Shown here: positions 14,264 through 50,274 of the stretch, one piece after another
Numbering within the stretch: the first letter of the stretch is position 1
Layout: each line of letters starts with the position of its first letter
Sequence record: PX393110.1
Strand: one strand, 5' to 3'
Origin: a phage
DNA length: 64,000 nt
Position numbers and translations under genes: made by a program
The notes under the pieces: model-generated
Told to the model about the DNA's origin: nothing
Seen by the model: only the letters and a program-made list of their open reading frames with translations
Database searches by the model: none

Positions 14264-14294
14264 TTAACAGCCTTTCGAGTCATCAAAAGAGCGG
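14264..14294 (-). promoter_or_regulatory. class-1 conserved motif TTAACAGCCTTT-N9-CAAAAGAGCGG (plus-strand reading), copy 1
   Basis: one of 18 same-orientation copies, each in the short spacer upstream of a minus-strand gene start. Confidence 0.45.
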
Positions 14295-14296
14295 TT

Positions 14297-14566
14297 TTAT
14301 CGAATTAGCCCATACTTCCATGCCATTACATGCGCAGGTTCGTTATGAGCGAAGAATGCGGTACCCTTCTTGGTAGTAAGCACCAAACACGGCTTATTTC
14401 CCATCATATCAGCCATGCTAGCTACCACAGTCTTCTCAGACCCAGGCTTAGCCGGATCAATGCCCATAGCTATTTTATGAGCAGTTGTCTTACCAGGACG
14501 TCTCGGATTAGATACCAAGACTTTAGGGGAGGTCTTTCGGCCACCCTTACGCTGCTTTCTCGCCAT
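14297..14566 (-). CDS. hypothetical basic protein
   Basis: 89 aa ORF with Lys/Arg-rich N-terminus. Confidence 0.3.
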   Translation of the reverse strand: MARKQRKGGRKTSPKVLVSNPRRPGKTTAHKIAMGIDPAKPGSEKTVVASMADMMGNKPCLVLTTKKGTAFFAHNEPAHVMAWKYGLIR

Positions 14567-17500
14567 GTTTAGGCTCCAGAGTTATTTTAGCCTTAAGCTC
14601 GATATACTTACATCCCCAGCCTGTACCGTCGGAACGAATACCGGATTTGGAGTTGAAGCTGTTAGCTATAGAGTTTAACTTCTCCTTCTCCTTAAGGATC
14701 TCTACGTATGGAGTCCACTGGCTATACTGATCGAGAGCTTCCAGTAGTTTCTCCAATGCAGACTCACGACCCTCAACGATCAGCCATCCGGAACCATCTT
14801 CGTTAACTCCATAGTCATCCAGACCCATCAAGGAACCGCCCCGAGCACCGAATTCGATATCAGTGCGCATAGGCATATCCCAGAGTTCACGAATAGCCCC
14901 CTCCATATTCTCACGAGTCTTCTGGAACACCTTGAACATCTCGTTGATTCCGGATGTGGTATCCAAGGAGTCGTGGACCATGATGTGAGTCTCGGCCTCC
15001 ATATTGGACTGCTTAAAGTCCTCATCCAGGAAGTACATACCTGCGCCAGCAACCATCGACGAAGTATTCTGGATAGGATAGTTCACCGAAGTAGAGTTAA
15101 CGTTGGTACCTTCCAGGTTGATACGGTTACCGAAGTAACCATAAGCATACCCAGTCTCGAAGCCATTTTTCTTGGTAGCATCAATCCATGCCTTAAGACC
15201 GGTAAACTTACCGAATACCGTGTCCATCAGATTCTGAGCACGCTCCATATCACCACCAGTAGCAACCATCGCTACCGATTCAAGGCTAGACTGGTATACT
15301 AATGCGAAGTTAATCGCCTTACCACCCTTACGCTCAACATCAGTTACTTCAGGTTCAGACTTCTGGTATGCAATCGAGCTAACGAATCGGTGCATGTCGC
15401 CACCAGATAAGAATACGTTCTTCATATCCGAGTCATCGGCGAACACGCTAACCATCACCAGCTCAGCCTGGCTAAAGTCCTGGTGGTACCACAGGCCACC
15501 CTCCGGCTTAGATACCCAGATGTTACGCAGAGTACTGTCGCCAGGAACGTTATGAATACCTGCCTGCCAACGAGATGTAATCGCAGCCAACGAGTTAAAG
15601 TCCGGAGTCATGATGTAGCAATCTTCACCATCCTGCAACTTCGGATTATCCCAGTCGTACTTACGAACTCGCAGCGGAGGTAAACCATCACGTAGTTTAG
15701 CTGCCCATACCGTCTGGCGTCCTACCTTACCATCAATGTATGTAGCAATCTGTTTGTAGTGACGCTTATACATCTTCAGGTCAACCATCATACGGAACGA
15801 TGTATTCCAGGTAGACTCGTCATCCGGATTAACTCCCAACATCAACTGGTGAATAGCCAATTGGGCATCGAGAACATCCGCTTTAAACTTATTCGTGAAT
15901 CGCTCTTCATAAGCTTCCAGACCGTCCTGGACGCACATGGCAATTAACTCCCGAACATGCTTAGACTCAGCAGTATCCCCGAATTGGATGATCCTGGTTA
16001 AGATCTCATCTACCGGAAACTCCCGGAAGAATTCCCTCTCCAGCTTCTCCGAATCCTTAGGCACGAACCCCTTAGAGATCGCCAGCAGGGTTTTATCCCA
16101 GTAGTCATGCACCTTAAGCTGGTCCATTACAGACCATAGCATGGTACACATCTCTACTTCATCAGTAAGATAGGCTTTCCAGAACTTCTCCTTATTAGCC
16201 TTATCGTTACTGTTAGGGTTGAAGAATCCTGACAGATCAGCAATCTTCCCAGCCAGAGTAGTAACCATCTTACGGCGCTCTTGTCCACCAGGAGTGTACC
16301 ATACGTTCTCGTACGGCAACTCTCGATAGATAAAGTCGCGAGCTGTAAGCATCTGGTCAGGAGGTAACTTAAGGTTAGGGATTAGGCTAACCAAGTGCTC
16401 CGACATTTTGCTCATGCAATAGTCGTACTCTTTAGTCGCCTCTTCGTCATCCCAACGAATACCGTTAGCTTCGAAGATAGATGCCAGGTATGGATGTAAC
16501 ATATATACGTTATACCCATCCTTATACTTATCGTAAAACATCTCGTGGATGAACACACCGTACGCGGAGTCATAGCAGCAGTACTCCCCAAGAATCTCAC
16601 GAGGAATCGCACCCCACTCATATGGGTAGAACGATGCCAAGTAAATAATCTCGGATTCTTCGAGCTCCTCCGATAGTTCGGCTATCTTATCCAGCATAAA
16701 CTGGTTGAAGTTAACAGGAATACGATTCTTAGCCGCCTTAGTCGGAGCCGCTTCCACGAGTTTCTCGTACTCAGCTTTAAGAGCTAGGTGATGCTCAATA
16801 TTGAACTCGCCAGACTGAATCTCTGCAATCTGCTCAGGAGTACAACGCTTCTTCATATCCTTGAAGATAGCTGCCCAACGATCCTTCCATTCGTGTACCG
16901 ACCCTTCCCAGAAGTCTGCATGTAAATAACGACGAGCAGCATCTTTCAACGAGCTCCGTTCGCCATGCATAGTCAGAGTTACAATCGCATCGATAAACTT
17001 GCAGAATACGTCTAACCAATGCCACGTAGTCTTAATCTCGTACGGACAGTTAAACGCCACGATCTGCTCCTGGAACTTAACCAGGAAGTCACGCAAGAAT
17101 CCTAGCTGTTCCGGAGTCTCTTTACCGGTAACATTGTACCATACGGACTTGGCATCCTTATCACCAATCTTCTTAGCGATACTGAATCCAGTGATCCGGA
17201 AGTCTACCGAGAATAAATCAGCTGCGTTAGACTCATAGTCGAGGCCGAGATAGCCTTTGTACCCAGACCACATAATGTCGTTAAGGAACTCCTGGAGGCC
17301 GTTCCAGTCGACGAATTCCCACTCTACATTATATTCGGATTCTTTCTGGCCGAATACCAGAAACTTAAAACGATCAATCCACGAATCAAGTATACCAGGA
17401 TCAGAATCCAGATTACGTTCAACCTGGGCATGGTGCATGACTACAGCTAGCTTAAAGTTATACTCCGGTATGTTACCCAGAGGGAACTTCAGTAGCTTAT

Positions 17501-49414: not shown

Positions 49415-49883
49415 AATCTTCCCATACATTAATTACTTCCTTACCCAGAGATTTAGCATGGGTTACACAGTTACCTGTACCACCCTTGCTGCCATCCCAT
49501 AAGGCTAATCCCTTCTGACTACGGTTAACCATGTAACGGTTACGCACCATCATCTTGAAAGAATCATACCCAGGCTCGGAAACTATAATTGTGCGACGAC
49601 TTCTCCTGCAGAGCTCAGTCCATTTTTCTACATCTGCAGATCGCCACATCTTGGGCTGGTCAATCATAGGGACTGCTGCGAAATATGGTATTCCGAGGTT
49701 AGCACATGCTTGAGCACATGCCATGTCCCATCCTAAAGCCATACCCACGAACCAGCAGTCGACCTTATTTTCTTCGGTCAACCTCTGGATATGATGTTCG
49801 GCAAACTGGGTAAGCTGATCATGGCTAAAGATATCCCAGCCACCCAGTTTATCTGGCCTATGACCAGTGACGAACATAAACAT
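49389..49883 (-). CDS. YpsA-like SLOG-domain protein (putative)
   Basis: MFMFVTGHRPDKLGGWDIF resembles the YpsA/DUF1273 N-terminal xxVTGxxPxxLGxF motif. Confidence 0.4.
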   Translation of the reverse strand: MFMFVTGHRPDKLGGWDIFSHDQLTQFAEHHIQRLTEENKVDCWFVGMALGWDMACAQACANLGIPYFAAVPMIDQPKMWRSADVEKWTELCRRSRRTIIVSEPGYDSFKMMVRNRYMVNRSQKGLALWDGSKGGTGNCVTHAKSLGKEVINVWEDYVKITGSP

Positions 49884-50224
49884 TACTTCTTCTCTATCTT
49901 GGCCTGCTTAGCCTTAACTAAAGCCAATGCGTTAGCCAGTTTAGCAGAAGTATCCTGCGGACCATCTTCTTCGAGCTGTTTCTTCAGGGACTCCATACGA
50001 TCGGTAGTCCCTTTAGTATCCATCTCGATTAATTCGTTGATGGTCGACCCGCCGACGTTAGGTAACTTGCCGAGTTGCGACAAATCCTTAACTTCGGGGA
50101 TCTTAACGTGAAGTTGAATAGACTGGGATGCTCTCGCGAATGACCCAGCACGACGATTGTCTCCTACCTTATTATATAGGGAAGATAGGTTACCCAGGAA
50201 CGTAATGATATCAGCAGTTTTCAT
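49883..50224 (-). CDS. helix-hairpin-helix DNA-binding protein (putative)
   Basis: start refined to MKTAD (ATG at 50224, GGAGGAA upstream); LSQLGKLPNVGGSTINELIEM is HhH-like. Confidence 0.35.
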   Translation of the reverse strand: MKTADIITFLGNLSSLYNKVGDNRRAGSFARASQSIQLHVKIPEVKDLSQLGKLPNVGGSTINELIEMDTKGTTDRMESLKKQLEEDGPQDTSAKLANALALVKAKQAKIEKK

Positions 50225-50243
50225 ATTTGATTCCTCCAACGGT

Positions 50244-50274
50244 TTAACAGCCTTTGGACCTTACAAAAGAGCGG
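50244..50274 (-). promoter_or_regulatory. class-1 conserved motif, copy 18
   Basis: TTAACAGCCTTTGGACCTTACAAAAGAGCGG; ~19 nt upstream of ATG, at the strand-switch region. Confidence 0.45.

Follow-up and report, generated by a model that had tools for sequence, protein, structure and literature searches.

A repeated two-block intergenic motif as a candidate phage-specific promoter in a phage with a split beta-prime subunit

Promoters of the T7 group span about 23 bp, from -17 to +6, and are read by a single-subunit phage RNA polymerase (RNAP). In the T4 middle promoters, a MotA box at -30 is combined with a sigma-70 -10 element and AsiA remodels sigma-70, and the extended -10 type of sigma-70 promoter (TGnTATAAT) does without a -35 element. 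The promoter-early stem-loop (PeSL) cassettes of T4-type phages, reportedly described by Arbiol and colleagues in 2010, are said to join a sigma-70 early promoter to a stem-loop. The early promoters of phages of the phiKZ/AR9 type, about 10 nt long, AT-rich and centred at -10, are used by a virion-packaged multisubunit RNAP, and the genomes of these phages carry beta and beta-prime genes in two complete sets, split and highly diverged (PMC7598289). Here we analyse a stretch of 64,000 nt of phage DNA (PX393110.1, hereafter the window), in which a two-block motif, called class 1 below, recurs in one orientation between genes. That this motif is a promoter of some kind appears highly probable from its sequence and setting. 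We lean, with much less assurance, towards the more specific reading that class 1 is the core of a phage-specific promoter for early and middle units, read by a determinant that the phage itself would specify.

Anatomy, placement and conservation of the motif

Read on the gene (minus) strand and numbered from the first A of AAAGGCTGTT, the class-1 motif is aaNNCCGCTCTTTT-gaNgNN-TCgAAAGGCTGTTAAanTGTnGGAGG, with six bases between an upstream block, CCGCTCTTTT at -19..-10, and a second block, TCgAAAGGCTGTTAAanTGT at -3..+16. The two blocks lie about two helical turns apart, and the 11-mer AAAGGCTGTTA is invariant across the 19 copies. A weight matrix recovers these 19 sites from the window, whereas shuffled sequence gives none. 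The 10-mer AACAGCCTTT likewise has 19 exact matches, all on the plus strand, and 22 when one mismatch is allowed, against 3.2 expected. An earlier reading made from the sequence only had listed 18 copies of a motif of about 31 bp with a central gap of nine bases. All 18 are present, with AACAGCCTTT exact two bases after the start of each, but the pattern TTAACAGCCTTT-N9-CAAAAGAGCGG fails to match even when three mismatches are allowed. The sequence at 14264 is TTAACAGCCTTT CGAGTCAT CAAAAGAGCGG, that is, with a gap of eight bases, and the corrected 31-nt pattern TTAACAGCCTTT-N8-CAAAAGAGCGG gives 17 matches at three mismatches or fewer, against none in 100 shuffles. With this gap the length of 31 nt stands, but the conserved element is longer: information content spans -23..+22, about 46 nt, and includes TGT and a downstream G-rich stretch. 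We therefore describe the motif as 36-46 nt long, in two blocks and containing G+C. The region from 0 to 14 kb, which was thought to be devoid of copies, holds the nineteenth, at 3657-3687 (AACAGCCTTT at 3659).

The minus strand carries the genes in 1-50.3 kb. Only 7.5% of this arm is free of open reading frames (ORFs), and 18 of the 19 copies lie in this fraction or over the final codons of the gene upstream, the remaining one being inside the last 40 nt of an ORF. The overlap with ORFs thus bears out the location in spacers and over last codons that had been proposed, and the single orientation holds for every copy. From the core to the start codon there are 31-98 nt, and the start codons are preceded by a Shine-Dalgarno (SD) sequence; in the tightest case, copy 50255, the SD (GGAGG) occupies +18..+22 and the ATG is at +31. 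Every intergenic gap of at least 45 nt in the arm holds class 1, the class-2 motif described below, a terminator-like hairpin or a tRNA spacer. The plus-strand late structural module carries no class-1 copy, as had been claimed, either with the weight matrix or with a loose core pattern. A search of this module for a late-promoter motif revealed no shared motif by eye, and the loose class-1/class-2 core pattern gave no class-like copy.

The units headed by class 1 are nearly all the non-structural ones, including the genes at the divergent point, the tRNA cluster and the unit that runs into the RNAP genes. A tandem triple (48302, 48244 and 48062) precedes small ORFs, tRNA-Arg and tRNA-Met. These tRNA genes, tRNA-Met (CAT) at 46979-47054 and tRNA-Arg (TCT) at 47200-47276, both minus, are unannotated in the record of the relative IME392. 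Thus, while a promoter is the best-supported interpretation, the assignment to a middle class made by the sequence-only reading does not fit a motif that heads nearly all non-structural units; the best reading is that it behaves as a general early/middle promoter class.

The window belongs to a rare type of E. coli phage: its identity is about 96% to Escherichia phage vB_EcoM_IME392 (116 kb, IME392 hereafter) and 94% to EP_H11, and neither record carries annotation of regulatory features. A genome-wide search gave 25 copies in IME392 and 24 in EP_H11, compared with the 19 of the window, all co-oriented with the genes of the non-structural arm of about 73 kb and none in the structural arm of about 43 kb of these two genomes. 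When orthologous copies from the three close genomes are compared, mismatches occur at a rate of 0.027 in -23..-10 and about 0.05 in the non-anchored part of -3..+16, against 0.12 in the central spacer (-9..-4), 0.13 in +17..+22 and 0.13-0.17 in the flanks; both blocks change about five times more slowly than the flanks.

Protein searches led to Logan contigs of relatives at about 83%, 73% and 46% protein identity. In these, CTAAAAGGCTGTTAAnnTGT stands in the corresponding gene slots, namely ahead of the genes for AAA_28, nucleotidase and DNA polymerase and behind the Acb1-like cluster, with the upstream block only partly kept as (GC)TCTTT(T). Acinetobacter phage Ab1-TPeters, whose beta-prime is 37% identical, has nine co-oriented intergenic copies of CTC-N13-AAAAGCTGTTTAAAGTGT, in full form gaa.CTC..AA.TGA..tcAAAAGCTGTTTaaa, and its CTC, AAAG and T9 positions share the register of class 1. 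RP13 (Ralstonia) and Vibrio phage 1.031.O also have a beta-prime gene, and each has its own repeated two-block intergenic motif. Blastn with the consensus found no match in 5,426 complete E. coli genomes, and in 50,697 phage records IME392 and EP_H11 were the sole matches. In IMG/VR, an exact-pattern scan with the 14-base core returned chance single matches and one unrelated coding tandem repeat (L092), and a protein-based scan found no relative. The searchable literature does not contain the motif string, and it yielded no paper about beta-prime-only phages or about the promoters of phages like IME392.

After these tests, a phage-specific promoter that is neither a terminator nor a CRISPR array, as the motif was first described, is the best-supported account, and its support, which is indirect, comes from position, orientation, purifying selection, distant conservation, absence from the host and lack of RNA structure. 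The motif would be read as double-stranded DNA sequence, which explains the data better than a structure does because pairing, folds and Rfam give no RNA support. Both blocks would be recognised, by a phage-specified determinant rather than through the sigma-70 consensus, and class 1 would drive the early and middle non-structural units. Transcription would start in the downstream G-rich stretch at about +17 to +21, a position that we infer because the left arms of hairpins lie upstream of about +17 and because the SD of copy 50255 begins at +18.

The relation to terminators fits such a layout. Terminator hairpins stand directly upstream of two copies, a strong one at 30434-30413 and a weaker one with a poor T-run at 29586-29565; at 30.4 kb the order terminator, motif, SD and ATG is as first reported. 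At three other copies (21460, 17876 and 3668), a hairpin with a T-run overlaps the motif, its left arm being upstream of about +17. In copy 21460, motif positions +10..+22 form the left arm, and this arrangement is kept at the orthologous sites of two relatives (L135 and L134) with different stem sequences. In copy 17876, the fold shows a 9-bp outer stem, ACCTCCGCC/GGCGGAGGT, which encloses the whole motif and is followed by a T-run. In copy 3668, the core AGGCTGTTAAC supplies the left arm of a perfect hairpin, with the downstream GTTAACAGCCT as the other arm and ATTTTT after it (3628-3666), and the same arrangement is found in the relative with 73% protein identity (L133, 4407-4450); this hairpin may act as terminator and promoter in one, or may serve autoregulation. 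In the proposed mechanism, the terminator hairpin of the upstream unit would overlap the promoter with its left arm upstream of the start site, so that incoming transcripts would terminate and transcripts initiated at the motif, which would lack the left arm, would not. The motif was also tried as an intrinsic terminator and rejected: its dyad is A/T-rich and followed by TGTTAAAG, and separate hairpins with T-runs overlap or follow only 4 of the 19 copies. The absence of a U-tract, noted earlier, therefore holds for the motif itself, but not for the surroundings of copies 3668, 17876, 21460 and 27191, which a hairpin and T-run overlap or follow.

Class 2 and the phage polymerase genes

Five intergenic gaps without class 1 carry another motif, class 2, of the form (TTATTTTTCAAATAA)AAACGA-N..-TAAAGCCCGTTCTTTTGGGTGGGGCG, downstream of which lie a G+C-rich hairpin and the conserved leader CTAATTTGGAGCTAAT..ATG. 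The core AAAG-SC-YGTT is common to both classes; class 2 is present in six copies each in IME392 and EP_H11, and has two orthologues in the 73% relative. Its core also resembles the motif of Vibrio phage 1.031.O, CCCCTTTCTTTTGTGG. The related cores and different flanks of classes 1 and 2 suggest two temporal classes that may be served by related machinery.

The window encodes a bacterial-type beta-prime subunit split over two genes (Table 1), in which the catalytic motif is retained as NMDVDGD; its N half is a candidate part of the machinery that would read the motif. The search for a beta subunit was negative both by tblastn with E. coli RpoB (E<=10) and with regular expressions for beta motifs. 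Pfam likewise gave no beta match for 91 ORFs among the best 25 of 73 families, where a beta as conserved as the phage beta-prime would have ranked. A faint Rpb2_3 match in a 487-aa ORF was set aside as chance, since it appears in 1 of 25 family members. Tblastn with T7 RNAP gave no match at E<=10 in the window, IME392 or EP_H11, and the large ORFs are otherwise annotated. A beta-prime gene without RpoB is also found at the loci of RP13 (by annotation) and of Vibrio phage 1.031.O (by tblastn), which suggests a beta-prime-only strategy in these three phage loci. The Vibrio phage (L137) has an unsplit beta-prime of 1263 aa (20001-23792) and an annotated sigma-70-like protein (36461-37252), of which tblastn found no homologue in the window, IME392 or EP_H11.

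The 218-aa ORF that adjoins beta-prime (Table 1) belongs to a family of about 190-220 aa with the N-terminal motif DPS.Y..AL.S..L, which adjoins beta-prime in four phage lineages (the window; L009, 11401-11982; L010, 18398-18958; L137, 19235-19870) and has only five members among 5.8 billion proteins. Its structural model is poor (predicted local distance difference test, pLDDT, 49.6) and gave no match with Foldseek. A likeness to the sigma-like protein of Vibrio phage 1.031.O (E 0.16) was discarded as evidence. One may speculate that the 218-aa protein is a specificity factor. The 487-aa ORF, also beside the beta-prime genes, has 28 homologues and an AlphaFold model that is mostly helical (pLDDT 69.8); a profile search of the PDB gave no match.

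The beta-prime genes lie behind class-1 and class-2 motifs; therefore, the reader of at least one class must be present at injection. In YerA41, a distant relative, RNAP subunits are early products that also occur in the virus particles (PMC7354516), and by analogy this phage may offer a precedent for virion delivery. The candidate reader of class 1 would be a polymerase that includes the phage split beta-prime and a specificity factor, possibly delivered with the virion. A further version of this idea, which we put forward tentatively and hold to be rather unlikely, is a hybrid polymerase, in which the split beta-prime of the phage would replace that of the host, together with the host beta, alpha and omega and a phage specificity subunit, and would read both classes. 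This orthogonal enzyme would recognise class 1 (AAAGGCTGTTAAAGTGT) and class 2 (AAAGCCCGTTCTTTTGGG) on thymidine-hypermodified DNA, and the AAAGGC of the spacer, which would sit at the place of the beta-prime zipper/zinc-binding contact of bacterial holoenzymes, would be read by the phage beta-prime. If true, it would be a third phage transcription strategy, beyond reprogramming of the host enzyme and a complete polymerase of the phage's own.

Alternative readings of the motif

Several observations count against a promoter read by a phage-specified determinant. No Pfam match to sigma, MotA or AsiA was found among 64 small ORFs, nor for the 91 large ORFs among the best 25 of 73 families, and the two conserved neighbours of beta-prime, the 487-aa and 218-aa proteins, show no informative fold. 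A reader present at injection fits the host RNAP as well as it fits a virion-delivered factor. The motifs of RP13 and of the Vibrio phage are loosely similar to class 1, and homology is not established. Copy 27191 is followed, at +28..+54, by a complete terminator, which would lie inside any transcript started at the motif; attenuation is one possibility, and the promoter model otherwise does not explain it. The literature yielded no transcriptome for IME392, EP_H11 or close relatives, and promoter function and start site are inferred. Finally, an extended -10 pattern, TGnTAnnnT, is present in exact register in 17 of the 19 copies, and an A stands at +20 in 18.

This last pattern is the basis of the alternative that survives best, an early promoter read directly by the host sigma-70 holoenzyme as an extended -10 element, which we judge rather unlikely. 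TGTTAAanT at +6..+14 would be the TGnTAnnnT element and transcription would start near the conserved A at +20; AAAGGC in the spacer and CCGCTCTTTT (at about -40..-31 in this numbering) would be activator or repressor sites or contacts of the polymerase core, and the phage beta-prime would serve late or class-2 transcription. The pattern keeps the same register in the 83%, 73% and 46% relatives, the arm shows no sign of another promoter type, and, with the beta-prime genes downstream of motifs, the host polymerase is the simplest reader at injection. On the other hand, a -35 element is missing (CTTTTG or similar is found 17 bp upstream of TAAanT), and the -10 hexamers TAAAGT, TAAGGT and TAAATT are weak for a promoter that has to out-compete those of the host. 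The invariant positions are those of AAAGGCTGTTA and not the positions contacted by sigma-70. The homologous motif of Ab1-TPeters has its TG in another register and keeps A10 (-11) in only 6 and T14 (-7) in only 4 of nine copies, while AAAAGCTGTTT is invariant; class 2 has a C where the A at -11 is needed; and the motif is not found in E. coli genomes. For these reasons we favour a phage-specified reader over plain host recognition. The statement that the motif is not a canonical sigma-70 promoter stands, with the absence of a -35 element and 0 of 19 copies recovered in a consensus scan, provided that the fit of 17 copies to an extended -10 is kept in mind.

Canonical sigma-70 promoters are also not enriched: a scan for a -35 near TTGACA, 16-18 bp upstream of a -10 near TATAAT, found 19, 31 and 25 against 34, 32 and 34 expected by shuffling. 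The best sigma-70-like site, TTGGCA-16-TATAAT (45128-45101, minus), agrees at 11 of 12 positions; it is internal to a small early-region ORF and may be due to chance, the overall count being below the shuffle expectation. Sigma-54 (-24/-12) was also considered: GGC-N8-TG fits by eye, but 15 of the 19 copies have T and not C at the GC position, and this reading was dropped.

An action of the motif on RNA, as a processing site (for an RNase III-like or phage endonuclease), a stabilising structure or a nut/put-like antitermination site, seems improbable. The RNase III sites of T7 are repeated, co-oriented and intergenic too, several class-1 copies are associated with hairpins and T-runs, and the imperfect dyad shows some apical covariation (12 double-change cells against 4.8 expected). 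The dyad reported by the sequence-only reading, GC(T)CTTTTGA / TCGAAAGGC, does exist; however, it pairs no better than column conservation predicts, the inner hairpin being paired at 81.5% against 80.1% in shuffled columns (56 distinct copies) and the outer stem at 47.2% against 47.4%. Only two apical pairs vary, about half of the apical cells are unpaired, minimum-energy folds are heterogeneous among copies, and Rfam gives no match, only the two tRNAs reaching the gathering threshold. An RNA or DNA hairpin was consequently rejected as the functional unit. A gene-free tandem triple, or a terminator just upstream of a copy, would also make little sense for a processing or nut site. The lambda nut site consists of boxA (CGCTCTTA) and a boxB hairpin, and a boxA-like CGCTCTT (CGCTCTTTA-like) is indeed seen in 10 of the 19 class-1 copies; but this block is lost in L134 and Ab1-TPeters, where the non-paired core is kept, no conserved boxB-like hairpin accompanies it, and there are 25 copies in the IME392 genome, some in tandem, all of which speaks against a nut site of the lambda type.

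Just as improbable is a purely DNA-level role with core promoters elsewhere (a repressor, activator or nucleoid protein site, a target of thymidine hypermodification, or a replication or packaging signal), for although the length, the dyad and the two blocks two turns apart would suit a dimeric DNA-binding protein and the phage modifies thymidines and has a 5-hydroxymethyldeoxyuridine (5-hmdU) DNA kinase domain, copy 50255, with its SD from +18 and ATG at +31, leaves no room for a separate downstream promoter, no other promoter-like element is conserved nearby, and strict co-oriented placement between genes and before starts is unexpected for modification, replication or packaging signals. The PadR-like protein at 1135-1446, once named as a candidate regulator, has a weak Pfam match (E 0.0066).

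Feature coordinates, neighbouring genes and described systems

Table 1. Coordinates in the window of the class-1 and class-2 copies and of the genes discussed with the candidate reader. Bits are the position weight matrix score of each copy; the reference position is the core for class 1.
Feature	Position	Strand	Reference position	Bits	Context
Class-1 copy	50233..50278	-	50255	59.7	First unit beside the divergent point
Class-1 copy	48887..48932	-	48909	65.7	Hairpin CGGAGGT-GGTT-ACCTCCG from +17
Class-1 copy	48280..48325	-	48302	57.2	First of tandem triple; in last 40 nt of upstream ORF
Class-1 copy	48222..48267	-	48244	60.0	Second of tandem triple, 58 nt past the first
Class-1 copy	48040..48085	-	48062	50.1	Third of tandem triple; upstream of small ORFs, tRNA-Arg, tRNA-Met
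Class-1 copy	46808..46853	-	46830	51.7	Immediately downstream of tRNA-Met
Class-1 copy	45343..45388	-	45365	53.2	
Class-1 copy	44353..44398	-	44375	44.2	ATG +36; heads two-helicase unit
Class-1 copy	39146..39191	-	39168	61.2	Heads exonuclease and SbcC-like unit (PHROG matches)
Class-1 copy	33701..33746	-	33723	55.8	Upstream of GyrB-like and topoisomerase A genes (annotation)
Class-1 copy	30351..30396	-	30373	57.1	Terminator hairpin 30434-30413 before it; ATG +38
Class-1 copy	29510..29555	-	29532	46.3	Hairpin 29586-29565 before it; ATG +39
Class-1 copy	27169..27214	-	27191	55.4	Followed by terminator-like hairpin and T-run at +28..+54 (27163-27137)
Class-1 copy	25430..25475	-	25452	46.3	ATG +40; upstream of thymidine-modification genes
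Class-1 copy	23294..23339	-	23316	50.1	Upstream of AAA_28 and thymidylate-synthase-like genes; orthologues in L135, L136, L134
Class-1 copy	21438..21483	-	21460	64.9	Overlaps hairpin 21450-21423 and T-run
Class-1 copy	17854..17899	-	17876	53.8	Upstream of DNA polymerase gene
Class-1 copy	14253..14298	-	14275	61.1	Heads 10.6-kb stretch containing the beta-prime genes
Class-1 copy	3646..3691	-	3668	44.0	Overlooked earlier
Class-2 copy	34273..34344	-			AAATAAAACGA..TAAGCCCGTTCTTTTGGGTGG
Class-2 copy	11856..11927	-	11879		After terminator-like hairpin 11965-11948; heads genes into beta-prime C
Class-2 variant copy	11477..11548	-	11500		CAGCCCGTTAACTTGGGCG; heads small genes into beta-prime C
Class-2 copy	8008..8079	-	8031		Heads 112-aa ORF, 218-aa ORF and beta-prime N
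Class-2 copy	2898..2969	-			Class-2 motif
Beta-prime C half gene	8777..10291	-			Pfam Rpb1 domains 3-5; 27-29% identity to RpoC from residue 570
218-aa ORF	6914..7570	-			Adjoins beta-prime; no known fold
Beta-prime N half gene	5330..6898	-			Pfam Rpb1 domains 1 and 2; 31% identity to E. coli RpoC residues 20-514

Several neighbouring genes deserve mention in their own right. A set for thymidine hypermodification (region 23362-24333 and neighbours, from the IME392 ORF set) comprises a 5-hmdU DNA kinase helical domain, a thymidylate-synthase-like protein, a dCTP deaminase, a dUTPase and a PIG-L deacetylase; this set implies that T within the motif would be modified on phage DNA, and the context of such hypermodification and of the 5-hmdU DNA kinase is given in PMC12686479. 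A full-length transporter of the betaine/choline/carnitine transporter (BCCT) family is encoded at 27199-28581 (minus, Pfam E 1e-92), an unusual cargo in the replication and modification module of a lytic phage. The anti-CBASS protein Acb1 (Pfam PF23474) is weakly matched by the ORF at 4014-4538 (minus), with an E of 2.7e-6 just above the cut-off; an RNase H-like ORF stands beside it, and this synteny is kept in L133.

The class-1 consensus was undescribed, while lineage-specific phage promoters are already a known kind of element. The 19 class-1 and five class-2 sites of the window are ready templates for identifying the reader, and a transcription system with only the beta-prime of a bacterial-type RNAP, uncharacterised so far, becomes testable. 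With E. coli as an easily handled host, this includes the question of whether a phage subunit can replace a subunit of the host polymerase. Should the system be orthogonal to host transcription, the 46-bp element and its reader would be a candidate expression tool.

Among the described systems, T7-group promoters resemble class 1 in several ways: they are intergenic, share one orientation, occur in many nearly identical copies and are missing from the host genome, an invariant core lies just upstream of a G-rich start region, and terminator/promoter pairs are closely packed between genes. However, class 1 is twice as long and in two blocks, and this phage has no T7-like polymerase; class 1 was not assigned to the T7 type since tblastn with T7 RNAP revealed no single-subunit RNAP. 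With the phiKZ/AR9 system it has in common a lineage-specific motif that lies upstream of early operons and can be found bioinformatically, together with relatives of polymerase subunits in the phage genome. The two differ in the shape of the motif, 36-46 nt in two blocks with G+C in class 1, and in the single bacterial-type beta-prime, beside which no beta was detected; both differences led us to set this type aside.

PeSL cassettes are also short, repeated combinations of promoter and stem-loop that flank small early genes and are possible recombination substrates, but they carry sigma-70 early promoters. The likeness to T4 middle promoters lies in the -10-like TAnnnT, in a phage-specific upstream block in the place of the -35 and in the loose similarity of GCTCTTT to the MotA box TGCTTTA. 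In class 1, however, the gap from the upstream block to TAnnnT is 18 nt, against 11-13 nt, and the AAAGGC spacer is invariant. This spacing, with no AsiA among the 64 small ORFs and no MotA among the best 25 of 73 families for the large ORFs, sets class 1 apart from T4 middle promoters. Extended -10 promoters are matched by TGnTAnnnT in 17 of 19 class-1 copies, with a purine 6-7 nt downstream; in contrast to them, class 1 is most strongly conserved outside the sigma-70 contacts, and its -10 register is lost in Ab1-TPeters and in class 2.

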